64,000 nucleotides of DNA from a virus (taxonomy: Duplodnaviria > Caudoviricetes), in the IMG/VR virus record IMGVR_UViG_3300043021_000113; one strand, 5' to 3'. Both the position numbers and the translations under genes were made by a program. The notes beneath the pieces were generated by a model, which was given only the letters and a program-made list of their open reading frames with translations, was not told the DNA's origin and searched no databases. Below are positions 19,915 through 42,959 of the stretch, one piece after another (position 1 is the stretch's first letter; the number at the start of each line of letters is the position of its first letter).

Positions 19915-21513
19915 TTATGATTCTATATTTATAATTTCATCATTAAGTTTACAATTGATAATTTTTATGTCTTTTGAACTAGAAGCACCAGGTATAAATG
20001 TATAATATACATTTTCTCCAACAACTGTAAAACATTTTATCATTTCACAATTTACAAATTCACTTCCAGGATTTGCTGTATGAACAAAACCTCCTATATC
20101 ATTACTACTACTCATGCTACTTTTAAGTCCCATGCTTTTATCAAATGATATATTATAACATTTTGTATTAGCACCTAAATATCCAGCAAAAAATCCCACA
20201 TATCGCTGAGCTGTTATTTTAGAAGAACTACTCTTTGGACTTATTGTTATATTAGAATAACTACAATTATTACCTCCATATCCAATTACACTACCAAAAT
20301 AATGACCATAAGTAGAATATAACTTAAGATCTCCATTAATATTTATATTATTAATTGTAGTATTATTATCTACATATCCAGCAACTATTCCAACATAATA
20401 ATCAACTTCACCTTTTGTAAGATCCAAACTAACATTAGAAAATGTAATATTACTAATTACTCCATTATTAACATTTCCAAAAAAACCCATATAGTTTTTT
20501 ATTCCCATATAGTTTGTTGCTTTAAGATTGTTAATAGTATATTTTTGACCATCAAAAGTTCCTTCAAATGGATTATCTACATTACCAATTGGTGTCCAAA
20601 TTCCTAATTCAATATCAGCTATTAATTTAATAACTTTTCCTTTATAACTATTCCCATTATTTACTTCATCACGAAAAGCTTTTAATTCTTCTAAATTTGA
20701 AATTTCAAGATCAGCTTTTGCTTCAATATCACTGGTAAGCTTGTTCCATTCTTTAGAAAGAATAATATTAAATGTTGGATTTGTTCCGCTAAAATCATCA
20801 ACCCATATTTCAGTAGTTGTGTTTGGAAGAACTTTTACAGTTTTAACAAATACTTTATTATTAGCAGTAACTTTTACTGTTGCACTTGTTATTGATGAAT
20901 CAATAAAACCAAATGCTTCAGCAACTATACTTGATCCTGGAGTATATGTTTTTTTAATATATAATGGATTTTCTTTATCAATAACAACTTTTCCAGTTGA
21001 AACATCAAATTTTGTTCCTAAACCTTCAATTTCAATTTCTGCTGATTCTGCAACTTTATCAACACCTTGTGATAAAACTTGAATTTTAGCATAAGGTCTT
21101 GTTAAAGGAACATCAACAGGAGCCATTATTTCTGAAACACTAATTGGTGTTGATGCATAAAAAGAATCTTCATTGTCTAAATCTGTAGTATATGTTCCAT
21201 CAAATTTTGATTTATCACCACCACCAGATAACCAAAAATTAAAAGTGTAATCTTGACCAATTACTACTGTTTCATTTATTGTAGCACTATTACCTGAAAC
21301 TGTAGCATCTTTTACTTCTTTTGTTTCTTGATTAAAACAATAAAACAACTTGCTTGTATCATTTGCTTTAGTTCCTAAATGGCTAGCATCAAAAGATACA
21401 TTAAAACTGACTGTTCTTGTTTCTCCAGTTTCTATTACCTCTTCACTATCTTTAGCACATGAAAACATGGCTAAAGAAGCCATGCTCATTGCTATTAAAT
21501 TTTTAAGTTTCAT
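19915..21513 (-). CDS. Bacteroidota-type surface lipoprotein (fimbrillin-like N domain plus beta-helix-like C domain), paralog 3
   Basis: Lipobox MFSC then AKDSEE; L.RPYAKI; W.PIGN...FDGQ.YTI.NL. Confidence 0.75.
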   Translation of the reverse strand: MKLKNLIAMSMASLAMFSCAKDSEEVIETGETRTVSFNVSFDASHLGTKANDTSKLFYCFNQETKEVKDATVSGNSATINETVVIGQDYTFNFWLSGGGDKSKFDGTYTTDLDNEDSFYASTPISVSEIMAPVDVPLTRPYAKIQVLSQGVDKVAESAEIEIEGLGTKFDVSTGKVVIDKENPLYIKKTYTPGSSIVAEAFGFIDSSITSATVKVTANNKVFVKTVKVLPNTTTEIWVDDFSGTNPTFNIILSKEWNKLTSDIEAKADLEISNLEELKAFRDEVNNGNSYKGKVIKLIADIELGIWTPIGNVDNPFEGTFDGQKYTINNLKATNYMGIKNYMGFFGNVNNGVISNITFSNVSLDLTKGEVDYYVGIVAGYVDNNTTINNININGDLKLYSTYGHYFGSVIGYGGNNCSYSNITISPKSSSSKITAQRYVGFFAGYLGANTKCYNISFDKSMGLKSSMSSSNDIGGFVHTANPGSEFVNCEMIKCFTVVGENVYYTFIPGASSSKDIKIINCKLNDEIINIES

Positions 21514-21529
21514 AATTTAAAAGATTAAT

Positions 21530-23122
21530 TTATTCAATAATAACATTTCCACTACCATTATAAAATGTCCCAATATCATTAATTGTTACCGGATTATTAT
21601 TAATTTTACAATTAGTAATAGTTGTAGTTGTATTTCCCCATTTTTCTATTCTACCAGAAAAAGAACCAACTTCTCTTGTATTATTATTTGAATTTATTTT
21701 AATATTGTTTAATTCACAATTAGAAAATACACCATTAGCTATACCACATGTTAAACCACCAATACGTCCATTTATACTTTCTAATTGAATATTATTAATA
21801 CTTACACTATTACAAATTATATCAGTATTTAAATATCCAGCAAAACCGCCAACAGCATCATCGGTAACTTTTATTAAAGAGTTATCATTGGCTTCTAATT
21901 TTATATTCATATATTCAGAATTTCCAGTTTCACTTCCAATAATTCCACCAGCATATCTATTAGCAGTAATATTAATTAAACCTTTAACAGTTATATTTTG
22001 ATATTTATTTTCTCTAGATTCAGCAGAAACAACAGAAACAATTTGATTTCCTATTATAGTTGCATTTTCAAATGTAACATTTTTAATTTCTCCTGAAGAA
22101 ACATAACCAAAAAATCCAACACAACTTTCATTTTCTTTATTAATATTTAAATTTTTAATAGTGTAATTTTGACCATCAAATATTCCAGAAAATGGATTAT
22201 GATTAGAATAATTACCAATTGGCTCCCAATTTTCATCTGTTAAATCGATATTAGATGTTAATTTGATAGTTTTTCCAGAATAACTTTCACCAGAATTTAC
22301 GGCATCTCTAAAAGCTTTTAATTCACTTAAATTTGAAATTTCAAGATCTGTTGATTCATAATAAATAGTGTCCCATTCTTTAGAATAACTAATAGTAATT
22401 ATTGGACTTATAGAATCAAAATTATTAACAGTTAAAACAGTATTTGTATTTTCAATAACATCAACTATTTTTGTAATAGTTTTATTATTAATAGTTACTC
22501 TTACAACTGCATTTTTTACTGTCTCATCAACAAAACCAAAAGCTTCAGCAATGAAATTTTCTTTAGGTGTACAATCTTTTGTTATTGTTCCAGTTGCTTT
22601 AACTTTTCCTGTTGTAATATCAAAAGCAACACCCAATCTTTCAATCTCAATTTTTGCTGATTCTGCAACAGTGAGACCATCTTTTGATAAGACTTGAATT
22701 TTAGCATAAGGTCTTTTTAAAATAATTTTTTTATCAGTTGATTTAGTAACAGTGAATGTTTCTGATGCATAAAATGAATCTTCATGATTTAAATCAGTAA
22801 CAAAAGTTTCATGAAATGCATCTTTATTTCCATTACCTGATAACCAAAAATTAAAAGTATAATCTTGACCTATCGTTACGCTTTCACTTATTAAAATATT
22901 ATCTCCTGAAACATCTTTTGATTTTACACCACTACCAAATGAATAAAACAATTTAGCTGTTCCATCTGTTTTAGTTTTTATTTGGTTTGAATCAAAAGAC
23001 AAATTAAAACTAACTACTGCTTCTTCTCCATTTTCAACTTCATTTACTACTTCCTCATTTTTACTACATGAAGTTATAGTCAAAGCTGCTAATCCAGTGA
23101 TTATTAAATTTTTAAAATTCAT
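21530..23122 (-). CDS. surface lipoprotein, paralog 2
   Basis: Lipobox ITSC then SKNEE; same motifs. Confidence 0.75.
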   Translation of the reverse strand: MNFKNLIITGLAALTITSCSKNEEVVNEVENGEEAVVSFNLSFDSNQIKTKTDGTAKLFYSFGSGVKSKDVSGDNILISESVTIGQDYTFNFWLSGNGNKDAFHETFVTDLNHEDSFYASETFTVTKSTDKKIILKRPYAKIQVLSKDGLTVAESAKIEIERLGVAFDITTGKVKATGTITKDCTPKENFIAEAFGFVDETVKNAVVRVTINNKTITKIVDVIENTNTVLTVNNFDSISPIITISYSKEWDTIYYESTDLEISNLSELKAFRDAVNSGESYSGKTIKLTSNIDLTDENWEPIGNYSNHNPFSGIFDGQNYTIKNLNINKENESCVGFFGYVSSGEIKNVTFENATIIGNQIVSVVSAESRENKYQNITVKGLINITANRYAGGIIGSETGNSEYMNIKLEANDNSLIKVTDDAVGGFAGYLNTDIICNSVSINNIQLESINGRIGGLTCGIANGVFSNCELNNIKINSNNNTREVGSFSGRIEKWGNTTTTITNCKINNNPVTINDIGTFYNGSGNVIIE

Positions 23123-23138
23123 AATAGAAAATAAAATT

Positions 23139-23167
23139 AAACCTGGCAGTGTTTAGCTGCCAGGTTT
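23139..23167. terminator. perfect hairpin between lipoprotein genes
   Basis: AAACCTGGCAG-N7-CTGCCAGGTTT. Confidence 0.55.
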
Positions 23168-23178
23168 GGGTTAATTTA

Positions 23179-24891
23179 TTAGTTGTTATTAATGATAAGT
23201 TGACCAAGACCTATGTTTTTGTCTTCATTTACTGTTTCATAAGCAGCACCAAGATCATTTATTTCTACTGGTTTACCATCAATTGTACATCTAGTAAGAG
23301 TTACTTTGTAACCTGTTGCATTATGCCATGTACCAGAAAATGCTGCTACATCTGAATCTCCATCATAAGTACCATTTGTTTTTACTCTTTTAGCAGTTAC
23401 ATCAACAGTTTTACAGTCTACATAATTAGTGCCATAATGAGCAATACCAACAAATCCACCAATATTACGAGTTGAACCAACAACGTCCAAACCTTGAATT
23501 AAAATATTAGTCATTGTTAAACTATTACTTGAACTTTCACCCATGAATCCAGCGAAACCTCCTACATAAGTTCTATAATCTGTCGTACCATCAAAAGAAT
23601 TTGCATATACTTTAGAACCTGTTTCAGCGATTAGTTCAATATTTTCGCAATTTGCATAAACATTCTTACCAAATACACCTCCAACATAAGCGAAACCTTC
23701 TACGTTAATTGTACCTTTTACAGTTATATTTTCATATGTAGAAGTATAAGGACAACCAGCAACAACACCAACATTCAAACGACCTTTAACAGTTGCGTTA
23801 TTAAAGTTTAGGTTTTTAACTGATCCATTCTGAGTATAACCAAAGAAACCAGCATTACTTCTATCTGCAATTTCTACTTTATTTGTTAAATTAATATTTA
23901 AATTGCTAATAGTGAAACCTTGACCATCAAAGTTGCCTTCAAATTTGTTTGTAGCATTACCAATTGGTTCCCATACTTTATTTTCAAGATCAATATTAGT
24001 CATCAATCTTACAGTTCTACCTTTGTAGCTATCTACACCAGTATTTACTGCATTACGGAAAGCTTCAAGTTCAGCACGATCACGAATGCTCAATTCACCT
24101 TTTACTTCATCAGTTTTTGAACCTGCCCAATCTGCATAACTTACACTAATAGTTGGAGTTCCACCCATTCCATCGAAACTATCAACAGTTAAAGTGGTAA
24201 TCATGTTTTGCTGAACTGCAACTGTTTTCTTTAAAGTTGCACCTTTAAATGTAACTTCAACTTTTACTGAATCTTCATCTTTATTTGCAAAACCAATAAT
24301 AGAACCTAAACTTGTAGATTCTTTAAGGGTAGAATTTGCACTAAGTGGAGTTTCAGATTTTGTCATTTCTCCTGTTGTAACATTGAATTTATCACCTAAA
24401 CCATCAACTGTAATTGTTGAATTTCCCGTAAGCTTACTTGTTGATACAACAACAATTTTAGCATATGGTCTTACAAGTGTAGTTGATATAGTTTGACCCT
24501 GAGCTTTGAATTCTTCTGATCCATAGAATGAATCTTCATTTTTAAGATCAGAAATTATTTCACCATTTGTAAATGGATTTTCAATTCCAGCTCCTGAATG
24601 CCAAAAATTAAACTTATATGTATTGCCATTTGTTAATTCTTCAGAAATAAGAGTACTTGAAGCTGGTTTTTGTTCGTCATATGTAAAACCATTATTTTCA
24701 TTTTGTTCACCTATAACATACCAAAGCTTAGTTCCTCCAGCTTTTGTCATCATTTGGCTGTCATCAAGAGTTACATTAAAGTTAACCATTGATCTTCCAT
24801 CAGTAGTTCCGCAGAACTCTTCATTGTCATTTACACATGCGGTTAGTGCAAGGGCACCTAAGCCCATAATCGCAAAATTCTTTAGTTTCAT
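23179..24891 (-). CDS. surface lipoprotein, paralog 1
   Basis: Lipobox LTAC then VNDNEE; same motifs. Confidence 0.75.
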   Translation of the reverse strand: MKLKNFAIMGLGALALTACVNDNEEFCGTTDGRSMVNFNVTLDDSQMMTKAGGTKLWYVIGEQNENNGFTYDEQKPASSTLISEELTNGNTYKFNFWHSGAGIENPFTNGEIISDLKNEDSFYGSEEFKAQGQTISTTLVRPYAKIVVVSTSKLTGNSTITVDGLGDKFNVTTGEMTKSETPLSANSTLKESTSLGSIIGFANKDEDSVKVEVTFKGATLKKTVAVQQNMITTLTVDSFDGMGGTPTISVSYADWAGSKTDEVKGELSIRDRAELEAFRNAVNTGVDSYKGRTVRLMTNIDLENKVWEPIGNATNKFEGNFDGQGFTISNLNINLTNKVEIADRSNAGFFGYTQNGSVKNLNFNNATVKGRLNVGVVAGCPYTSTYENITVKGTINVEGFAYVGGVFGKNVYANCENIELIAETGSKVYANSFDGTTDYRTYVGGFAGFMGESSSNSLTMTNILIQGLDVVGSTRNIGGFVGIAHYGTNYVDCKTVDVTAKRVKTNGTYDGDSDVAAFSGTWHNATGYKVTLTRCTIDGKPVEINDLGAAYETVNEDKNIGLGQLIINNN

Positions 24892-25937: not shown

Positions 25938-26924
25938 ATTTAAAATTTGGTTTTGATTTTATGAATAATTATTGATATAATAAAAGCCGCTATGCTTATT
26001 CCTAGAACAAACATCGCAGCTAAAAGTATAATTGCCACTATTCTTTATTTTTATATTTAAAAATAATTAATATTATAGAGCTAATTATAAAAGCACAGAT
26101 AAAAGATCCTTCAGCACATAAAGCAATAAGTAGCCATATAATAAAGCCAAGGATAATTACAAAGACAAGAATTGTATTTATAATGTCCAGCATGTTTTAT
26201 AAAAGTATTTCAAAAATCAAAAAGAAAAATGAAACTATAATTAGCCAGCCAAAAATTACAAATCCAACTGATTTAAGAATAGGTTTTATCCAATCATCTT
26301 TACTCATAACTTATTATTTGCTAGTTTTACTACACCATGCCATAAATCCGGAAATCAACAATGCTGGAATTCCAATTATAGGACAAGCAAAAATAATCAT
26401 TATTAAAAGAATAATTCCTAAAATTTTCATTTTTAATGATCTTTAAAGTGTATTATAATATTATATAAAACTAATCCCAAAAATAAAACTCCACTTATGA
26501 TATATAAAATCGGGTTGACTATGTCGATATAAGCTATTATGCCAATTATTATTAATATAGACCAACCAAGAACAGAGAAAAATTCTTTCATTATTTACTC
26601 TTTAATTGATCCATAACATAACAAACAAGCAAAACTAAAACTCCTATACTTATAATTCCCCAGATCCAGGCACCTATAATGTAACCTAAATCACAATCCG
26701 CAAAATAAATTGCTAAGTAACTTGTACCAGCTAATAGTGCAATAATCTTTATTAAATTATCCATTACTATTTACACTTACTTTCAAGTGTGAAGTTTTAT
26801 ATGTTAATAAATTAAGTTATATTATTTTTTAAATAAAATTATTCCATCAGCAGTTAGTTTTAAAAACTAACTACTGACTTCCTCTTACTAATTAACAATA
26901 AGAAAAATTAGGAATAATTAAAGT

Positions 26925-27320
26925 TTAAAGGTTAATAGAACGTAATTGTTTGAGAATATAATTCGCGGTTTCTTTTGTTACTGAAGCATTAATAACAATT
27001 GCGCCATCTTTTATGCCATCAATTGATACTTTATTTTCTCCTTCAGTAACGTTAATTTCTGCTTTCATGCCATTTGATGCTTTAACTATTGCATTAGCAG
27101 AATTGCTCGTAGTTTTGAAATCTACAAGTTCAAAAGTTATTAATGTTTTATCGCCAACGTTAGCGTAAACTTTGGTTAAATTATCATTAGCTGTTAGTTC
27201 TATTGCATTAAAAGAACCTAAAGTTATTGTGTTATCTACTGGTTTATCAGCTGCAAATGCTTTAATACCAACAGTTATAACAACAAACGTAATAATAAGC
27301 CAAAATACAAACTTTCTCAT
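26925..27320 (-). CDS. secreted hypothetical protein
   Basis: Signal peptide ending KAFA. Confidence 0.7.
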   Translation of the reverse strand: MRKFVFWLIITFVVITVGIKAFAADKPVDNTITLGSFNAIELTANDNLTKVYANVGDKTLITFELVDFKTTSNSANAIVKASNGMKAEINVTEGENKVSIDGIKDGAIVINASVTKETANYILKQLRSINL

Positions 27321-27462
27321 AATTTTTTACACTTACTCTCAAGTGTGAAGTTTTAAATAATTAATATTTTATATTATTTTATTAAATAATAAATTATAGC
27401 GTAAAGTGATATTAGCAAATAAACTGTAAATAATGCTAATGTAACACTTTTTAAAAATCTTT

Positions 27463-29715: not shown

Positions 29716-30357
29716 TTAATCAATATTCCAATAATCTATTTCTTCATTTAATATTGCTTCATCCCAAGATAATTCATATCCTGTAGAAGTATAATCATTT
29801 TCTCTTAAATATTTAAATTTACATTTAAGCGTAAATTCTTTAGATTTACTAACTAATTTTTTATATTCTTTTTCATCAAAAATAATATTATATATTTTAT
29901 TATCAGTTAAACACTGTACACAATAAAGATTATTTTCAATAGATTTATAATAAATTTGACGAGATTTTATTTTTATTTCTTCATTAGTTAAAGCATTAAA
30001 TATTTTTAAATAAGAAATATTAAAAGGAGACCAAGAAGAATATTTAAATATATTTGAAAATTTAAATTTTACTTCTGCTTCAAAATCTTTATAAGTTTCA
30101 TTCCATTTTTTTTCAATTTCTTTTATATTTAATTTATATTTAGAATATAAAATTGGAATTTCATTATATTTATTTTTATTATAATTATTTAAATATTCAA
30201 TTTTACAATAAAAAAAACCATTCCAACCAATATTTCCCCATTTTACTTCTTCATTATAAATTGTCCATTCATCATTTATTTTTTTAAAAGAATTTTTATT
30301 TAAAGAATCAAAATTTAATGAATGATAATAACAATTTACAAATTCATTATTATTCAT
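29716..30357 (-). CDS. hypothetical protein
   Basis: N-terminal half resembles the same family (LNKNSF..I...W..Y, YCK, IPIL.S). Confidence 0.65.
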   Translation of the reverse strand: MNNNEFVNCYYHSLNFDSLNKNSFKKINDEWTIYNEEVKWGNIGWNGFFYCKIEYLNNYNKNKYNEIPILYSKYKLNIKEIEKKWNETYKDFEAEVKFKFSNIFKYSSWSPFNISYLKIFNALTNEEIKIKSRQIYYKSIENNLYCVQCLTDNKIYNIIFDEKEYKKLVSKSKEFTLKCKFKYLRENDYTSTGYELSWDEAILNEEIDYWNID

Positions 30358-30411
30358 AACAACTCTGCGCTTAATCTACACAACGCCTAGACTTTAAATA
30401 AATTAATTAGT

Positions 30412-32320
30412 TCGGTTGAGGGAATTGAACCCTTCAATGGCAAACCTGCGCAACCGATAAATTGCTGACTTTCACAAGCAAGCAATCCCGCAATTACAAA
30501 TCATATTAATTCAAAATTATGAAAACCTTTGTAGCTCTCTAGGAATCGAACCTAGAACTACCCACCAGGAAGCTTGAAACCTAATTTCACAATTAAGTTT
30601 GCACTAAAACCAATAAAAATACTTAACTTCATGAAAACAAACAATACGTGTGACTTTCCGGGAATTGAACCCGGAATTACCCAAACCAGGAAGTCGCAGC
30701 TCTAACTTCACAGCCAAAACTGATAAAATCTAACTATTTAACTATTTACCATTTTAAAAAATTATCAAAATGAAAAAAATCACAGAAAATGTGCGGCTCT
30801 CTGAGAATTGAACTCAGAATTACCCAAAAAACCAGGAAGCCACAAACCCAGTTTCACAACTGAATTTGTAAATAAAAAATCACACAAAAAATATATAAAA
30901 AATATTATGTGAGGCTTGCTGGGAATCGAACCCAGGATCAATCTAACCGTAGACAAGCCGAGAATAAACCTAACTTCACAGTCCAGCTATTCTAAGTGAA
31001 AAAAACAAAAATTATGATATACAAATGTTGAGGCTTTCCAAGAATTGAACTTGGAATTATCCATACCAGGAAGCCAAATTTTAAAGACGCCGAATTTCAC
31101 AACCCAGCGTCTTTGTGTAGTGTGTCTAATTTTTAATGAACTATTGTTTTGTTATTATTAAAGTAAATGTACAAAGATGAAGTGGACTTCTAGGAATTGA
31201 ACCTAAAATTACCTAAACCAAGAGTCCATATTTAAAAGAGCCTAATTTCACAATCAAGCTCTTTTTCTTAGCATGTTTTACTAATTCTCTATATTATGAA
31301 CAAAGTACAATTCTATTCGTGGCCCGCTGGGAATTGAACCCAGCATTACCTAAACCAAGAGGCCTCAAGCCTAGCTTCACAGTCAAGCTTGTTGTAACAA
31401 CTTAAATTTTCAAAAAAACATGATTATATTATGAGTATGGCGGCCTTTTAGGAATCGAACCTAATTTTAATCCAATAAGGCCAATAAATCTCCAAATTTC
31501 ACAACTTAGAGATTCAAAAATTATTATCAACTAATTCAAAACTATTATTTATAAAAAGCGTGACTACAAATGTAGTGGTCTTTTAGGAATCGAACCTAAA
31601 TTACGCTAACCTGCAAGACCAACCCTTAATTTCACAATTAAAGGGTAACAATAAACTAAAAATAAATATATATGGAAAATCAAACTCTGTGGCTTTTAAG
31701 GACTCGAACCTTTATGCACGCCAAAACACATGTAAAGCCAGTTGTGTTTTTCATGGTTATCAAGTACGATATTATGTGAATATATGTGAATAATACTGCG
31801 ATATTATAAAAAGAACTGCCGAACTTCACAGCCCAGCAGTTCGCGCTTTAATCATATTAATTTAATATAAAAATACATTTCAAAAAGAAACTTTATGCGT
31901 GCGGCTTTCGAGGACTTGAACCTCAATGTATGCCTTTATACATAGAAAGCCAAATAATCTAATTTCACAATTAAATTATTTTTTACCCAACACTAAAAAA
32001 TTAACATGATATGAAAAACGTTGAGGCTTCTAAGGATTCGAACCTTAATAGCGCCTAACCGCGAAGCCCAAAATTCCTAATCTCACGATCGAGAATTTAA
32101 ATTTCAAATAACAAATCTTCAGGTTATGAAAAAATCATAAGTGCCTGCCTGGGAGTCGAACCCAGGAGTGGGATTTTGTAGACTTTAGTTGTGTATAATC
32201 AATTACTATTACCTGTTGAAACAAGTGATTTTAACTACATTTAATTTTAATTTTATTGTTAAAAGAAATTTATTGTTTATTTTAAAAAAATAAACAAACC
32301 CACTGTCTTCCTTGCCAGGC
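30412..32320 (-). ncRNA. array of 14 mini tRNA-like elements, 13 GUGA-tetraloop hairpins and 13 unique spacers
   Basis: tRNA-like units at 30412-30457, 30533-30574, 30652-30695, 30795-30841, 30913-30959, 31032-31075, 31183-31228, 31321-31364, 31442-31482, 31577-31620, 31690-31740, 31903-31951, 32025-32068 and 32143-32320. Each has a GUUCRAnUC T-loop and covarying stems. No ORF >=60 aa in the region. Confidence 0.9.
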
Positions 32321-32466
32321 TCTGAACCTTAACGCTTTAAGAGTTCAGTTGTTCAAAAGAACTGTAACGCTTTACATGAACCTTGAACTAATAAAAAAAA
32401 TTCGCCAAATTTTCCGTGATTACTCGAAGCACGGACTAAGTGATCATGAAAAAAAGGATCTGACCA

Positions 32467-35198
32467 TTAGTTGAGCCAGTATGGCTTATTACTAACAGCT
32501 AATATATCATGGTTTGCGAGTTTTAACTTTTCAGGATCTGTGTTAAATCTATAGCCAAGTATTTTACGATTCAACCTAAAATAACTTTCGGGACTTTCCT
32601 TAGTTATAACAGTGATCACATGTTGAAAAGTATTTTTATTGTCTACTTCTTCAAACTTGAATCCCTTATAAGCTCTAACTCTAACCGCTGGCTTTGTGAT
32701 ATATAAGCGTATTTTATAAATAAAACCTAGGTACACGCCGTTTACATCATATTTCCCGCGATTTGGGTCCTTGATATCTGAATACTTCATCTCACCCATT
32801 TTAAGGTTTCTGAACCTAAAAATCGGGTATACTCTAAGAGCTTTCCATTGTTAAGTTCAATTGAGATGATAAGCTTTTTTGTCTCATAATTTCTTATGCT
32901 TATATAATTAACATCGCATAAAATGCAAGATATTTCTTGATTTAATAATTCTTGTTTAAGACAAACTCGACCATCAGAAAGTATCTTAAAATAACAATTG
33001 TTAATTTCAAGTGTTTTGCTTTTTTTGGAAAGTTTACTAACGTTTATTGATTCCAAGTCTGGACATTTAGCCAGACTTGAAATTACACGTTCTTTCACTT
33101 CATCATTGCAAAACAAAATTTCTTCTCCTGATGTTGTTTTTATTATAAGTTTATATTGTTTCATTTATGAAAAATCACTATGAATAACAACTCCTTTGTT
33201 TTTTATTAGATGCAAACCATCTTTTATGACTATATGGTCAGCTGTACAGGATTTCCAGTATTCACCATACATTCCAGAAAGTTTGTATCTTATAAAACCA
33301 TTACTTACTACTTCTTGAAAATCGTCTTCATAAATAATTTCGTTAAAATCCAAATCTTCGTCTGAATGAACATTAACGGTTATTCCTTTAGGTGCTTTTT
33401 CAAGAAATTTTAAAAATTCTTCTTGATTGAATAAATAAAATCTATCTTTTAATCTAACTTCGTATCTCATTTTTTAAAAAGGCATATCGTCTAATTCTGG
33501 TTTCGTTGAGGTATCAAGCATTTTTTGTGCTTTTTTAATTTCAGTGAAAACTGATGATGCACCAGTCATAGTTGAAGAGTTATAATTAAAACTTAATAAT
33601 CCAGCTGGAAAACTAGCTTCTGCATAATATCCGCGGTCATGATAAGTTATCGTAAAAGTTGATAACGTGAACATCGGATAGCCTAAATAGCCAGTTATTA
33701 AGTTTTTATTATTATATGGGCCCCTATCTGTTTTTAGATGTAAACGACCATCTCCTGTTACTATGTAATGAGTACTGGTTATTAATACTTCGTTTTTATC
33801 TTTATAATTAACAGCACGGAGTTTGACATTTTTGTCGAACGCATCAAGTTCAGTGAAAAGATCCAGAGCATCTGCTAAGCTCTGAATCAATTCTATTTTA
33901 TCTTCATATTCTAATCTGTACATATATAACTATAAGTTGAGGTTCCAGAATTCTTGTTATGAGTTATTGTATGCTTTGTTTTATCTTTTAAAGTAAAATT
34001 AATGGTTACTTTGTCGTCTTCTTTTGTAAATATAAGATAAGTTGGAAAAACTCTAAGATCGCTTTTTATGCCGTCTTTATCTATATAATTATTTTTAAAA
34101 ACTACATGACCATTATTAAAAACACGGAATTTATCATCAGAAAATATTTTTGTTTGATCATTCGTCGAATCTACTTCTTGAACTCTAAAATCCCTTATGT
34201 CTTTATTATTAATTACTGCTGAATTAATAAATTTGTTTAATCCTTCGTTATTTACAAATATTGTTGTTTTATCAAATGTTATTCTATACATAGTTAAATA
34301 ATCATGGTTAACCTATACACCATAAGGTTTAGATGAATAATTTAATATAATTTAACAATTAATATGTCTTCAAAGCTATTTATAATCATTGCTTCGCCAT
34401 TTTTCTTTTTGAACATTGCTGCTCCTGATTCTGTAAATTTTACAAAATAAGCTAAAATGTCAAGATTATTTATTTTTATATAATAAAAAACGTTTGTATC
34501 TAGCTTTGTAAATTTGCAGTTTTTATCTATATAAAGAGAATTATTAGATAATGCGTTATGCATAAATCCTGGAGCTATTGGTTCAGCTTGACGAATGAAT
34601 TCTTGAATTTTAAAGTGTCGATACTCGCCAATAGATAAAGCAATTGTTACTGTATCATTAGCTATCTCTTTAATAACTCCAAACCAACCTTTAATTCGAA
34701 CGTAATTTCCGGTTTTTACTTCTAATTTCTCAAGAGCAAATGATCTGTGTTGATTAAATCCAGATTCATCAAATATCATTCCTAAGCATTTACAAGTTAA
34801 ATCTTGGTTTATTTGAACATCTAATGGATCGATTATTACTCTTGAATTATCAAGAGTTCTTCTAAGAATATATACTATCATAAATTAATTGATTTTTAAA
34901 ACTTGAGAGTATTTAGGATTTGAGCATTAAATGTTGGTGAGATTTTATTTATTCTTACATCACCAGATAATCTATCAACTTGGCCGTTTATAAGATGAAT
35001 GGAAATTAAAGTTATGCCGTCATTGAGCATTACTTCTACTTCATCTCCTCTGGAAATTACTTTAGTTTCTATATTAGTAACTCCTAAAGCAGCTTTAGTT
35101 AAATAGTCAATAGTGAAATTTTCACTTTTAACAATGCTTAATTGTTCCATGAAGCTTTCTTTTATACTTTGAAAGCTTGAAAATACTTTCTGTTTCAT
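32467..35198 (-). CDS. run of seven early hypothetical ORFs (32467-32799, 32787-33164, 33165-33470, 33474-33923, 33911-34291, 34342-34881, 34896-35198)
   Basis: Contiguous co-oriented ORFs; several start M(K/R)xY(K/E/R)(L/V/I) and may be remote paralogs. Confidence 0.7.
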
Positions 35199-36248: not shown

Positions 36249-38336
36249 TCATCTACACGTGTATTCTTCTTCATAGAGTGCTTCTAACTGTTCGTCGATA
36301 TTCTTACACTTGCTTTCGGAGCGTAGCCATTCTTCGTTAAGAATGGCATTTTCTCCTAATTGCTTATATAAATTGAACTGAAATTCTCTTTCTTTTTCCA
36401 GTTCTTGATATAGTTCGTCAATTTTTACATTTGTTCTCATTGGTTATTACTTTTTAAAACTGAGATCACGCGTTCCATTTCTTTTATATACTGCTTATAG
36501 CTCGCGATTTCTTTTTGATAATTTTTAACATCTTTTTTGTACTTTTCTTCTAAGTTTGAATAGTTTTCTTTTAAAGATGTATAATAATTATTCCAGTTTT
36601 CGTTTAGTTCTTTTTTCTCTTTATCGAAATTTTCTTTTAGTTCTTGATATTCTTTAGCTAATGTTAAATATCTAAAACTCCAATATTCGGTATCTTCTTC
36701 TAATTCTTTTCTTTCTTTATCGAAACTTTCTTTTAATGCGTCTATTTCCATTTCATATTCAATTTCTCTATTATGATAAAAATTCCGCAATTCTTCTTCT
36801 TTTTCTTTAAGAGTTTCTTTATATTTAATTTCTAAAGCTATATAATCAACACCCCAACTTTCGTTTAATTCTTCTTCTTTTTCTTTAAGAGCTCTTTTTA
36901 TTCTTTCTTCTATTTCTTGCTCTTGTTGTTTTCTTATTTCTCTTTTTAAACGACTAATGTTGTTTTGTATTTCTATAGACTCGTCAAACCATTTTTCATA
37001 TTCTGAACTACTAAAAGATATTGTTTCAAGCTTTGCGTATGTTTTAATTAAAAAATATTCTTGATCTTTTAGTTGTTGTTCTAAATTATAATTTATGCTC
37101 ATTTTTAATTGTTTTTTTATTGGTTAATAATTAGTTTTCAAATTATGCATAACTAATGCATAACTTGAAACTAATTAAAAATTTTTTGTTATAATACGCG
37201 CACGCGCGTACATTATATTATTGGTTACTTTTAATTTCTTAAAATTAATCCCAATAATCAAAAGAATTATTCAAAGAAAAACACATATGTTTTTTACTTA
37301 CTTTTTTATTTAATTCTTCGATTCCTTCTTCTTTATATTTTGTTTTCATTTTTGTTACACGACAACCTAGCTCATTTCTACGTTCAAAATTGTTTTTGAA
37401 AATATCTAATACTTCTTTTTGATTGTTTACAATATCGCTATATTCTCTTAAAATCTGCTTTGTTTGTTTGCATCTTTCTCTTAATTCTTCTTCGTATTTA
37501 TGGCCAAGTTCGAAAAGTTCTATTTTATGTTTAAGTTCTCTTTCTTCGTGTGAATACTCTTTTACTACGTCTGCATAACGTTTGCCGTTATATTCTTTGT
37601 CTTCTTGGTTTTGGTAAAAATCGTATATTTTACGAATATATCTTAAACGTTCTTTGAACCCTTCTAATTCTTTTTTGCTTTCTTCGAATTCCCAATCTGT
37701 CATCATATCTTTTTAATTTTTAAGTTGTTTTATTGATTTTTAAATAGTTACGCAAATAATGCATAACTTGAAATTAATTTAATTTTTTTTATTATAATTC
37801 GCGCGCGTACATTATATTATTGCACGAATTAAAGTAAAAAGAGTGTAAGCCGCACATAATATCAGCACGGCTTTAGTGAACTTGTCAAGCTTCATGATTA
37901 ATACTGTTTAACTCGTCATATAAAACTTTTAACTTTCTATCTATTTTGTCAAGTTCTATCTCAACTGGCCAACAGTAAAACTCAAGTTCTTCAGAGTCTT
38001 TGTAAGACTCTTGGAGATCTTGAATTTCTTCGATAAGCTCTTTGCGGACTTTATATAAAACATCCATTTCATCTTTTATCTTTTTTGCGTTCATGATTAA
38101 ATGTTATTATTATTGAACCATTCTGGACGTTCTCTTAATATATCATACAGCTCATCGTAATTCTCCGAATACCAAGCTTTAGATATATTCGCATTCTCTT
38201 CTTCTCTCTTCTTATAAGAAGAAGAATCTTTGGCTTTATCTCCTAAAGCTGTTTTTAAATCAGCCATTACAGCTAAATTATTATTTATTACCATTTGAGC
38301 TGCAAAACCCAAAAGCTTTTCGTACTTTGTCTTCAT
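36249..38336 (-). CDS. five charged coiled-coil early ORFs (36249-36440, 36437-37102, 37245-37706, 37885-38094, 38097-38336)
   Basis: E/K-rich ORFs; 36437-37102 has internal repeats. Confidence 0.7.
37154..37822 (-). promoter_or_regulatory. two copies (37154-37223, 37757-37822) of a ~70-bp intergenic repeat, candidate phage early promoter
   Basis: Identical blocks TAATGCATAACTTGAAA and CGCGCGTACATTATATTATTG, each ~50 nt upstream of a start codon. Confidence 0.6.
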
Positions 38337-38358
38337 TATTTATTTTTTTTTAATTCGC

Positions 38359-38401
38359 GCCCTAAGAAAGAATCGAACTTTCTTTAACTCCAAAGTAAGG
38401 C
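38359..38401 (-). ncRNA. solo mini tRNA-like element
   Basis: GCCUUA-CUUUGGAGUUA-AAGAAAG UUCGAUU CUUUCU-UAGGGC; same architecture as the array units. Confidence 0.7.
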
Positions 38402-38479
38402 TCACTACATAAATATTCGTGAATGAATAACCACTACATAAAAAAAGAGATGAGAGCGCAATTGCGCTCCCATTTTTAT

Positions 38480-38971: not shown

Positions 38972-39153
38972 ATTAAAATATTTTTATTTTTTATTATCAA
39001 AAACCGGAGGGGGAATATTATTGAGAATCAAATTTTATTCAACAAATTTTGAATAAAATTTTTTAGAACTTTATTTTTTTTCTATTATTTTTGAATAAAA
39101 TTTTTTTGTTATTTAAATTTTTTTTATTACTTTTGTATAAAATCTTTTAAGTC

Positions 39154-41432: not shown

Positions 41433-42959
41433 ATGATAAAGTTTAATGACGATGCGAAAGCCGAATTACAAGCCGGCATTAATGTTTTAGCTGATGCAGT
41501 ACAAGTGACACTAGGACCTGGGGGTCGAAATGTGCTTATTTTAGATGGAAACAAACAACATATAACCAAAGACGGTATAACTGTTGCTAAAAATATAAGT
41601 TTAAATAATAAATTTCAAAATTTAGGAGTTAATATTCTTAAAGAAACAAGCAAAAAAACTTGTGACATAGCGGGTGATGGTTCAAGTTCAGTAATAATTC
41701 TTACACGTGAAATTATAAATCTAGGACTTAGTATTATAAACAACAACCATAATGTAATAGAAATTAAAAATGGCATGAATAAAGCTCTTCGTGCTATGAT
41801 TAAATATATAGATAAAATTTCTGAGAAAATAATTAATAAACAGCAATTAATAGACGTTGCGACAATCTCTGCCAATAATGATGTTGAAATTGGCCAATTA
41901 ATAGCTAATGCATTTGAGCTAGTAAACAATAATGGCATTATAACAGTTGACTTAAGCAAAAATACAGAAACAACAGTTGAACGTGTGGAAGGAGTAAAGT
42001 TCAGTAATGGCTATTTATCAAGATTTTTTATAAATGATAAAGTTAAAAAAACAGCTGATCTTCAAAACCCAGTAATTATTATCTGCAAAGAAAAACTAAG
42101 GGATATTAAAGACATAATAGAACCCCTCAACAATATTGTTAAAAACAACGATAATTTGCTTTTAATAGTTCCGGATATAGAACCAGACTGTTTAGATCAA
42201 TTCATAAATAATAACATAGCTTCTAGGCTTAAATGTTGTGTAGTTAAAGCTCCTGGTTTTGGTGATTATCAGTTTGACAATATCCAAGACTTGGCAATTT
42301 TAACTTCTTATAAATCACAACATAACTTATATTATTTGGGTTCAGCTGATAGAGTAATAGTTAATAACACAGAAACAACGATTATTAATGGCCATGGAAA
42401 CAAACAAGCAATAACTAATAAACTAGCTTTACTCCAAGAACAATTATTACATGAACAAGAACCGCACGCGATAACTAAACTTCAAGAACGCATAACTAGA
42501 TTAAGCAACAACGCCGCAGTAATACATGTTGGAGCTTTAACGGAACTTGAAGTATTAGAAATTAAAGATCGCATAGACGATGCTTTAAATGCAACTAGAG
42601 CTGCAATTTCTGAAGGAGTAGTTATTGGTGGTGGTTATGCTTATATACAATGCTTGGAAGCTTTAAAAGATCTTGAACTAAAAGACAATGAACAACTAGG
42701 ATTAAATATAATTGCACATAGCTTAACAGCAATTAATAACCAAGTATTAACTAATGCTGGCTTAGAAATTTACAATTACGAGTTTAATAATCAAGGCATA
42801 AACGCTAAAACTGGTGAACTTTGTGATTTAAAACAAGCTGGCATTATAGATCCTGCAAAAGTTATTAAAACAGTTCTTGAAAACTCCATATCAACTGCTG
42901 GTATATTTTTAACTACTGAATGTGCAATTATAACTGAAGATCTAACTTTTAACCAATAA
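41433..42959 (+). CDS. groEL: chaperonin GroEL (divergent)
   Basis: TLGPGGRNV, ITKDGITVAK, ATISANND, KAPGFGD, EGVV.GGG, GIIDPAKV. Confidence 0.95.
   Translation: MIKFNDDAKAELQAGINVLADAVQVTLGPGGRNVLILDGNKQHITKDGITVAKNISLNNKFQNLGVNILKETSKKTCDIAGDGSSSVIILTREIINLGLSIINNNHNVIEIKNGMNKALRAMIKYIDKISEKIINKQQLIDVATISANNDVEIGQLIANAFELVNNNGIITVDLSKNTETTVERVEGVKFSNGYLSRFFINDKVKKTADLQNPVIIICKEKLRDIKDIIEPLNNIVKNNDNLLLIVPDIEPDCLDQFINNNIASRLKCCVVKAPGFGDYQFDNIQDLAILTSYKSQHNLYYLGSADRVIVNNTETTIINGHGNKQAITNKLALLQEQLLHEQEPHAITKLQERITRLSNNAAVIHVGALTELEVLEIKDRIDDALNATRAAISEGVVIGGGYAYIQCLEALKDLELKDNEQLGLNIIAHSLTAINNQVLTNAGLEIYNYEFNNQGINAKTGELCDLKQAGIIDPAKVIKTVLENSISTAGIFLTTECAIITEDLTFNQ

Follow-up and report, generated by a model that had tools for sequence, protein, structure and literature searches.

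Anticodon-less mini-tRNAs alternating with antisense-RNA-like modules in a crAss-related phage of Bacteroidota: a candidate tRNA-punctuated precursor of small RNAs

The 64,000-nucleotide stretch of viral DNA analysed here (IMG/VR record IMGVR_UViG_3300043021_000113, hereafter the window) is part of a large, crAss-related phage of Bacteroidota. Its terminase shares 25% identity with crAss-like phages and 41% with two uncultured human-gut phages, its genes include those for ribonucleotide reductase, GroEL and a portal protein together with many small ORFan genes, and its proteins recur on contigs of up to 152,878 bp. Inside a long run of minus-strand genes, between two minus-strand open reading frames (ORFs), lies a 2.1-kb stretch without any ORF of at least 60 aa, and this stretch holds, on the minus strand of 32320..30410, an array of ~1.9 kb in which 14 anticodon-less mini-tRNAs (13 compact, and one split by a 135-nt insert) alternate with 13 modules, each composed of a U-rich segment, or spacer, and a GUGA hairpin. 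The array starts and ends with a mini-tRNA (mini), each module thus standing between two of them, and the spacing from T-loop to T-loop is 114–152 nt, with one unit of 212 nt. A listing of T-arms and GUGA hairpins on the minus strand bears out the inventory of a preliminary description of this DNA, which had counted 14 tRNA-like elements, 13 hairpins and 13 spacers in ~1.9 kb free of ORFs. Small proteins encoded in the spacers were considered and rejected, for the frames are inconsistent on either strand and the resulting peptides, of 10–35 aa, are unrelated. The minus strand, proposed from the outset, is indicated by the orientation of the T-arms and by G.U pairs that would be C.A mismatches on the plus strand. 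We number the minis e1 to e14 and the modules S1 to S13 in minus-strand order, and all of them lie on that strand.

The 13 compact minis, 44–52 nt in length, have a 6-bp acceptor stem, a middle part of 12–20 nt, a 5-bp T-stem with a consensus loop, one unpaired base and an invariant C. The T-stem is paired in 98% of cells and the letters of the T-loop are invariant, while the middle part usually forms a tiny hairpin and contains GG in all 13 compact minis, a count that 72 of 5000 shuffles reached. Over the 12 minis from which we built a covariance model (R1), 91% of cells are paired and double changes occur at 10 of 12 pairs; none of 500 shuffles matched this, and structures slid along the alignment collapse. 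Because only 7 of the 13 elements form the outermost pair, 1:72, and relatives do not keep it, the acceptor stem has to be read as 6 bp rather than the 7 bp first assigned to it. R1 scores the array minis at 45–62 bits: e2 (32023..32069, counted from −1 to C74; 53 bits), e3 (31901..31952, with a 6-bp middle hairpin), e4 (31689..31740), e5 (31575..31621), e6 (31440..31483), e7 (31319..31365), e8 (31182..31228), e9 (31030..31076), e10 (30911..30960), e11 (30793..30842), e12 (30650..30696; 62 bits) and e13 (30531..30575). In e14 (30410..30458), the last element, which ends 52 nt before the start codon of the ORF at 30357..29716, the model finds the T-arm only. The split element e1 (32141..32320) carries its acceptor strand and D-like part at 32320..32304, an AU-rich 135-nt insert with a closing stem of 6–7 bp at 32303..32171, and the T-arm, the 3' strand of the acceptor, N73 and C74 at 32170..32141. 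This insert is fast-evolving in the relative L196 described below, and two DNA runs each contain a contig, possibly insert-free, that joins 32168 to 32304; it may be a mobile insert or an extra arm.

In the rest of the 64 kb, R1 finds a single further copy, a solitary mini between two minus-strand genes at 38402..38357 (minus strand; 17.8 bits; 7-position acceptor, N73, C74). It has neither GUGA hairpin nor U-rich module, which suggests that minis punctuate mRNAs too. ARAGORN reports 0 tRNA and 0 tmRNA genes in the window, and no Rfam family reaches its threshold, the best tRNA match (RF00005) scoring 16.6 bits against 29 and mascRNA 17 bits against 42.5. With RF00005 the minis share a T-arm with consensus T-loop on an acceptor stem, here of 6 bp; they are not canonical tRNAs, since their short middle part provides no cloverleaf with an anticodon arm. 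We also rejected tmRNA, which ARAGORN does not find and of which Rfam matches only T-arm pieces of 11–18 nt.

The GUGA hairpins, of 12 bp, are paired in 93% of cells and show double changes at 10 of 12 pairs, again unmatched in 500 shuffles. Six of their columns are invariant (four in the loop and two in the stem), another two agree in 90% or more of the copies, and two wobble pairs are kept, U.G at the sixth position in 11 of 13 copies and G.U at the fourth in 8 of 13. Perfect 8-bp GUGA hairpins number 10 on the minus strand of the window, and nine of these are in the array. With their loop positions, the modules are S1 (32070..32140, loop 32086), S2 (31953..32022, loop 31968), S3 (31803..31900), S4 (31622..31688, loop 31635), S5 (31484..31574, loop 31502), S6 (31366..31439, loop 31380), S7 (31229..31318, loop 31251), S8 (31077..31181, loop 31100), S9 (30961..31029, loop 30979), S10 (30843..30910, loop 30857), S11 (30697..30792, loop 30711), S12 (30576..30649, loop 30590) and S13 (30459..30530, loop 30475). 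Most hairpins stop 0–6 nt short of the next mini. As the preliminary description had it, the scaffolds keep structure rather than sequence, with a mean column identity of 66–68% and covarying stems. The near-identical direct repeats of a CRISPR array are absent, and we rejected that classification.

Small RNAs (sRNAs) of a comparable shape are known from Bacteroides: in GibS and the 14-member FopS family, a single-stranded 5' seed pairs across the start codon of target mRNAs (e.g., susC mRNAs), with a terminator hairpin behind it, and one Bacteroides phage is reported to carry a copy of FopS (PMC11697453, PMC7366714). The spacers of the array contain 47% U and 8% C. They are enriched in TTCAT, TCAT and CAT (0 of 1000 dinucleotide shuffles reach the observed counts), whereas the sense motif ATGAA is not enriched. 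Although the segments differ from one another, as originally noted, they are not wholly unrelated, for a UUYCAU core, positioned 1–21 nt behind the mini, is common to many of them, S1 included. In predicted folds of the modules the first 30 nt are unpaired with a mean probability of 0.57, the hairpin region with one of 0.23. When CAU was anchored on AUG in 678 Bacteroidales start regions, the eight main anchors were more complementary to these translation initiation regions than flank-shuffled versions, with z from +1.1 to +3.3 (S2, +2.6; S13, +3.3); genuine FopS gave z = +2.6 in the same test, and secondary CAU sites scattered around zero. Among 401 Bacteroidales genomes, 13 of the 15 top places for S11 coincide exactly, and in the expected register, with the start codon of a real ORF, as do three of the four top genomic places for S4. 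Many of the ORFs matched by S11 open with MKK and a hydrophobic stretch resembling a signal peptide, and a start region of Bacteroides faecis contains a 24-nt perfect complement to S11. Core enrichment, anchored fit and matches at start codons thus support the antisense, translation-start character first ascribed to the spacers, which, as judged from their letters, are shaped like antisense RNAs to Bacteroidota start regions.

Comparison with relatives provides a second line of evidence. A contig recovered from cluster mates of the upstream ORF (L194) spans the whole array at 99.9% identity, and a relative with 92.5% identity in the flanking ORFs (L196) covers e1 to S8 with the same order of units. 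Among 160 stem pairs compared with L196, 153 are unchanged, two are double-changed and still paired, two have changed to or within a wobble, one mismatch has become a pair, two changes concern positions already unpaired, and none is lost. Examples from L196 are a C-G pair of the S3 hairpin that is U-A there and an A.A mismatch in the T-stem of e4 that is U-A; in relatives, one pair of the S5 hairpin goes from U-A to C-G and another from C-G to U.G. The changes of L196 recur in public metagenome contigs, including a C-G to U-A change in the D-like stem of e2. The unpaired U-rich segments show 2.8% substitutions in L196; the flanking ORFs show 7.5% overall (p = 0.001) and 14.5% at their third positions (p = 1e-7). 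The segments thus evolve about five times more slowly than third-codon positions; their few changes lie mostly within the first 3–4 letters behind a mini, and S1 and S6 have none in 87 nt (41 and 46 nt, respectively). The minis are 96.6% conserved (3.4% substitutions). The leader between the upstream gene, with its terminator-like hairpin at 32479..32460, and the first mini (32321..32466, minus strand) is 93.8% identical, close to the rate of the flanks.

The slow substitution of the spacers supports purifying selection on their sequence itself, which speaks against mere insulators and against CRISPR-like turnover. The rapid, CRISPR-like exchange of spacers that had been envisaged is therefore not seen: in relatives whose flanks are 93–97% identical, few letters of the locus are as well conserved as the spacers. 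In a few short metagenome contigs a familiar mini is preceded by a different GUGA hairpin, and cassette-level differences thus exist in more distant strains; two metagenome joints with short sides (30685>32009 and 30456>31327) were left out of account. Wider searches returned no second array. The array had no blastn match among GenBank phages, and no mini was found in the two closest GenBank phages by terminase (41%) or in an IMG/VR fragment (93%). Four motif patterns run against IMG/VR yielded only true tRNA blocks or chance matches, one pattern in JGI metagenome contigs gave a single coding chance match, and R1 in 151 Bacteroidales genomes produced one chance match inside a gene.

The borders of the minis are those of the tRNA genes of the presumed hosts. 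For comparison we used 21 tRNA genes located within 120 Bacteroidales loci (L047-L166) that had been collected by seed pattern. N73 followed by C74 occurs in 19 of the 19 with a well-paired acceptor stem, a full CCA in only two of 21, G at +1 in 18 of 21 and T at −1 in 14 of 21; an A usually comes after C74 in these sampled genes. The array minis have C after the discriminator in 14 of 14 cases, mostly with A next and never as CCA, G at +1 in 11 of the 13 compact minis and U at −1 in 7 of those 13. Sharing these letters makes host tRNA processing the likely cutter, and from the sequence the minis look like substrates of host tRNA end-processing. Among the loci collected, the FopS-type seed pattern, elsewhere confined to Bacteroidales, also matched two from metagenome-assembled genomes labelled Clostridium and Staphylococcus (L069, L099), which may be binning contamination or chance.

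Signals for transcription are sparse within the array. Of the 13 hairpins only the third, in S3, passes a terminator scan, with a stem at 31842..31813 and a U run behind it; U runs also stand behind the hairpins of S7 and S8. S3 is the only module without a mini directly behind it, and it ends in this true terminator. The tail that follows (31741..31802, minus strand) has no hairpin before e4 and is replaced or carries indels in relatives, and the array may therefore be two transcription units, the second possibly starting there. The −7 element TAnnTTTG occurs only three times on the array strand, and a sigma-70 promoter scan produced matches no more common than in shuffles. Elsewhere in the window, complete Bacteroidota promoters (−33 TTTG, −7 TAnnTTTG) precede genes at 39105 (+), 43830 (+)/43865 (−), 45322 (+)/45364 (−) and 59484 (+), some of them back to back. 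They assign the host to the Bacteroidota, and they are good sequence evidence that host RNA polymerase is probably used at the genes bearing them. That such promoters stand before genes and not before single array units favours a polycistronic precursor.

We thus propose, tentatively and at somewhat less than even confidence, that the array is a tRNA-punctuated precursor cut at the minis by host enzymes into 13 FopS/GibS-like antisense RNAs that block initiation. The folds, the strand, the host-like borders, the selection on the spacers and their anti-start-region character can be read from the DNA; transcription, cutting, pairing in vivo and the identity of targets are what the proposal adds. 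The minus strand would be transcribed as one or two long precursors, with a possible break after the terminator at 31842..31813. The minis would serve as punctuation: host RNase P would cut on their 5' side, at the foot of the preceding GUGA hairpin, and the host tRNA 3'-end pathway behind N73/C74. The products would be 13 RNAs of ~65–105 nt, each with an open U-rich 5' part bearing the anti-start core and a blunt, protective 3' hairpin, the third module owing its 3' end to the terminator instead of a mini. Once released, these RNAs would pair with the start regions of Bacteroidota-type mRNAs, of host or phage, and initiation would be blocked. The minis would be released as well and may have a use of their own, and the last of them would set the 5' end of the downstream mRNA. 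One could envision, in a bolder form, a protein-independent multiplex silencer in which an early transcript is diced by host tRNA enzymes into 13 antisense RNAs, each shutting off the translation of one selected host mRNA (perhaps one for a secreted protein, a lipoprotein or a SusC-type surface protein), with cassettes exchanged between strains; we regard this as possible but rather unlikely.

Several observations weigh against the proposed precursor. The stacked acceptor/T helix of the minis has 11 layers, not 12, and its junction contains a C.A mismatch in several of them, which makes it uncertain that RNase P or RNase Z would cut. No specific target emerged from the start regions and genomes compared. 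The genome matches of the spacers are mostly low-complexity A/T runs, and no host genome stands out. Self-targeting is not apparent either: the energies of duplexes with the window's 99 start regions do not improve on those obtained with gene interiors or shuffled guides, S6 excepted. That spacer (31393-31438) pairs over ~30 nt, 11 of them exact, with 37700-37735 (minus strand), in the start region of the ORF at 37706..37245, at −24.6 kcal/mol (1 of 250 shuffles, borderline after 13 tests), and this is the best and only candidate self-target in the window. Instead of guiding, the shared anti-start core could be a motif of the scaffold or for processing that duplication has spread, and the conserved U.G and G.U wobbles of the hairpins hint at a specific binder. 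The one RNA library gave contigs at the upstream edge (32193..32496), scraps elsewhere and none across the array; these contigs show neither ends nor strand, and no conclusion is drawn from them.

Alternatively, the minis themselves may be the payload, an improbable explanation and yet one that several features fit. Fourteen released acceptor/T-arm mimics, perhaps CCA-completed, would soak up a host factor acting on the top or the 3' end of tRNAs, for instance a defence toxin, a modification enzyme, or the CCA-adding or processing enzymes, and the modules would merely insulate and stabilise. This could account for the retention of the tRNA elbow, with T-loop and GG in 13 of 13 compact minis, for the host-like ends and the conservation of the minis in L196, and for the existence of a solitary mini that has no module. 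However, the minis are no better conserved than the spacers (3.4% versus 2.8% substitutions), which weighs against this explanation, and a non-random anti-start signal would be needless in a mere insulator; moreover, the acceptor stems are near-copies of each other rather than mimics of different host tRNAs.

It is also conceivable, though decidedly improbable, that the modules do not pair with mRNAs and that their U-rich segments and GUGA hairpins titrate an RNA-binding factor or the initiating ribosome. A candidate factor is RbpB, an RRM protein that opposes the action of FopS and GibS and binds them in their single-stranded 5' parts (PMC11697453), and the modules have a core in common with that seed. 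Thirteen copies would fit titration, and the invariant letters and kept wobbles of the hairpin suggest a protein site. On the other hand, the modules have no match to the FopS model RF04319 at E up to 10, and their segments are mutually different beyond the core and yet individually conserved, a pattern that distinct targets fit better than a single binder.

Two further explanations are both very unlikely. In the first, the array would be a row of thirteen independent genes for small RNAs, each having a promoter and a hairpin terminator of its own and the tRNA-like part as a 5' domain or stabiliser; the U runs after the hairpins of S3, S7 and S8 would agree with this, and the phage may use its own polymerase with promoters that we do not recognize. 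The near-absence of host-type −7 boxes and the single hairpin passing the terminator scan weigh against it, as does the fact that most hairpins touch the next mini and leave no space for a promoter; in addition, no module stands behind the last mini or before the first. In the second, the array would be a cis-acting leader whose structured RNA governs the mRNA from 30357, be it read-through, stability or 5' end, and gives rise to no trans products. Its position within a long minus-strand gene run and the short distance from the last mini to the start codon are compatible with such a role, and in one relative lacking the ORF at 30357..29716 the array adjoins the next gene. However, 1.9 kb with 13 differing, individually conserved segments exceeds what a leader needs, and the anti-start signal would be left unexplained. 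That the array is the functionless remnant of a tRNA gene block hardly deserves credence, for although such blocks are common in crAss-related phages of this size (PMC12386605) and ARAGORN finds no tRNA in the window, the compensatory changes, the absence of lost pairs and a conservation, notably of the spacers, well above that of third-codon positions in the flanking ORFs contradict decay.

The closest resemblance of the modules is to the Bacteroides sRNAs. Their weak Rfam matches are all to such RNAs, namely GibS, BTnc231 and BTnc060, with alignments over the 5' seed and the GUGA hairpin; S7 matches BTnc231 at 25 bits (threshold 80) and S13 GibS (RF04182) at 24 bits (threshold 115), which places the modules outside the GibS family. 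They are not members of FopS (RF04319) either, since true FopS RNAs in Bacteroides loci score 77–82 bits with the very model that fails to match the modules. What the modules have in common with FopS and GibS is a length of ~70–140 nt, an AU-rich composition, a predicted single-stranded 5' seed complementary to the start codon followed by a 3' hairpin, a number of paralogues of ~14 and a common seed core. In contrast, the host genes are dispersed and have a sigma-ABfr promoter and an intrinsic terminator each, whereas the phage modules, with three −7 boxes and one terminator among 13 units, are chained between tRNA-like elements and carry a distinct conserved GUGA hairpin with wobble pairs.

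The punctuation, for its part, has parallels outside Bacteroidota. In plant mitochondria, t-elements are non-decoding acceptor/T-arm folds that set the 5' and 3' ends of RNAs via RNase P and RNase Z (Forner et al. 2007, PMC1920247), and in MALAT1/mascRNA a tRNA-like fold recruits tRNA-processing enzymes to free an adjacent non-coding RNA (PMC8457004). The minis of the array are likewise non-decoding acceptor/T-arm folds bordering other RNAs; the t-elements, however, flank organelle mRNAs, and here 14 elements with a 6-bp acceptor and host-type C74, putative sites of cutting, flank 13 short non-coding modules in a phage. The TMERs of MHV68 are viral non-coding RNAs linked to tRNAs; a paper devoted to them is PMC4337559. 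In the TMERs, as in mascRNA, a tRNA-like fold frees a neighbouring functional non-coding RNA, but both belong to eukaryotic polymerase III or nuclear systems with one or two cargo RNAs per unit. In polycistronic tRNA-gRNA arrays, man-made guides between tRNAs are freed by RNase P and RNase Z. The Haloferax icrRNA is a synthetic guide flanked by t-elements (PMC4326828). Such constructs follow the same logic, with guides placed between tRNA-like elements of one transcript, but they are man-made and feed a Cas effector, while the array is natural and has no evident effector protein. With CRISPR arrays it shares a conserved unit that alternates with differing segments in a gene-free stretch, and differs in having no cas genes among the annotated ORFs and segments that are conserved in close relatives and contain a common core motif. 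The 3'ETS-leuZ of E. coli is a trans-acting sRNA from the spacer of a tRNA precursor, which RNase E generates as a by-product of a genuine tRNA operon. It resembles the modules in being a trans-acting RNA from the spacer of a tRNA transcript, although the tRNA parts of the array do not decode and its purpose seems to lie in the spacers. Full-text literature searches returned no natural phage array of this kind, in keeping with the preliminary description, which knew of no such phage system. A natural layout for producing many regulatory RNAs from one transcript thus appears to be undescribed, and what is new here is sRNA-like cargo between anticodon-less mini-tRNAs.

The ORFs flanking the array belong to no family and have homologues confined to their own clusters. 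The one directly behind it, a 213-aa ORFan (29716-30357, minus strand), is missing in relatives from two metagenome runs, in which a joint, 29706>30405, holds 9 other letters, and is present in the contig L194. Similar short hairpin motifs stand just 5' of the start codons of several early genes (26600-27350 and 30358-30400, minus strand), and three paralogous genes of 530–570 aa lie in tandem at 19915-24891 (minus strand), all matching a single phage family of unknown function, phrog_30905. The GroEL-type chaperonin is encoded at 41433-42959 (plus strand; phrog_5725, E = 1e-123). A more precise host was sought by BLAST of the array against five and then 401 Bacteroidales genomes, where A/T-rich low-complexity matches dominate and no genome stands out.

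Very little is known of how crAss-related phages take over Bacteroidota, and RNA-based regulation in this phylum is only starting to be charted with GibS, FopS and RbpB. If the proposed reading is true, phages use multiplexed antisense control, and anticodon-less mini-tRNAs of phages would have a concrete job. The copying of the borders of Bacteroidales tRNA genes, with C74 and no CCA, would point to the processing pathway that is used, and the array would serve as a compact tool, driven by host enzymes, for the expression of many RNAs in Bacteroides. In the bolder form set out above, nature would have its own version of engineered tRNA-guide arrays, and the phage lineage most abundant in the human gut a new way of taking over its host.

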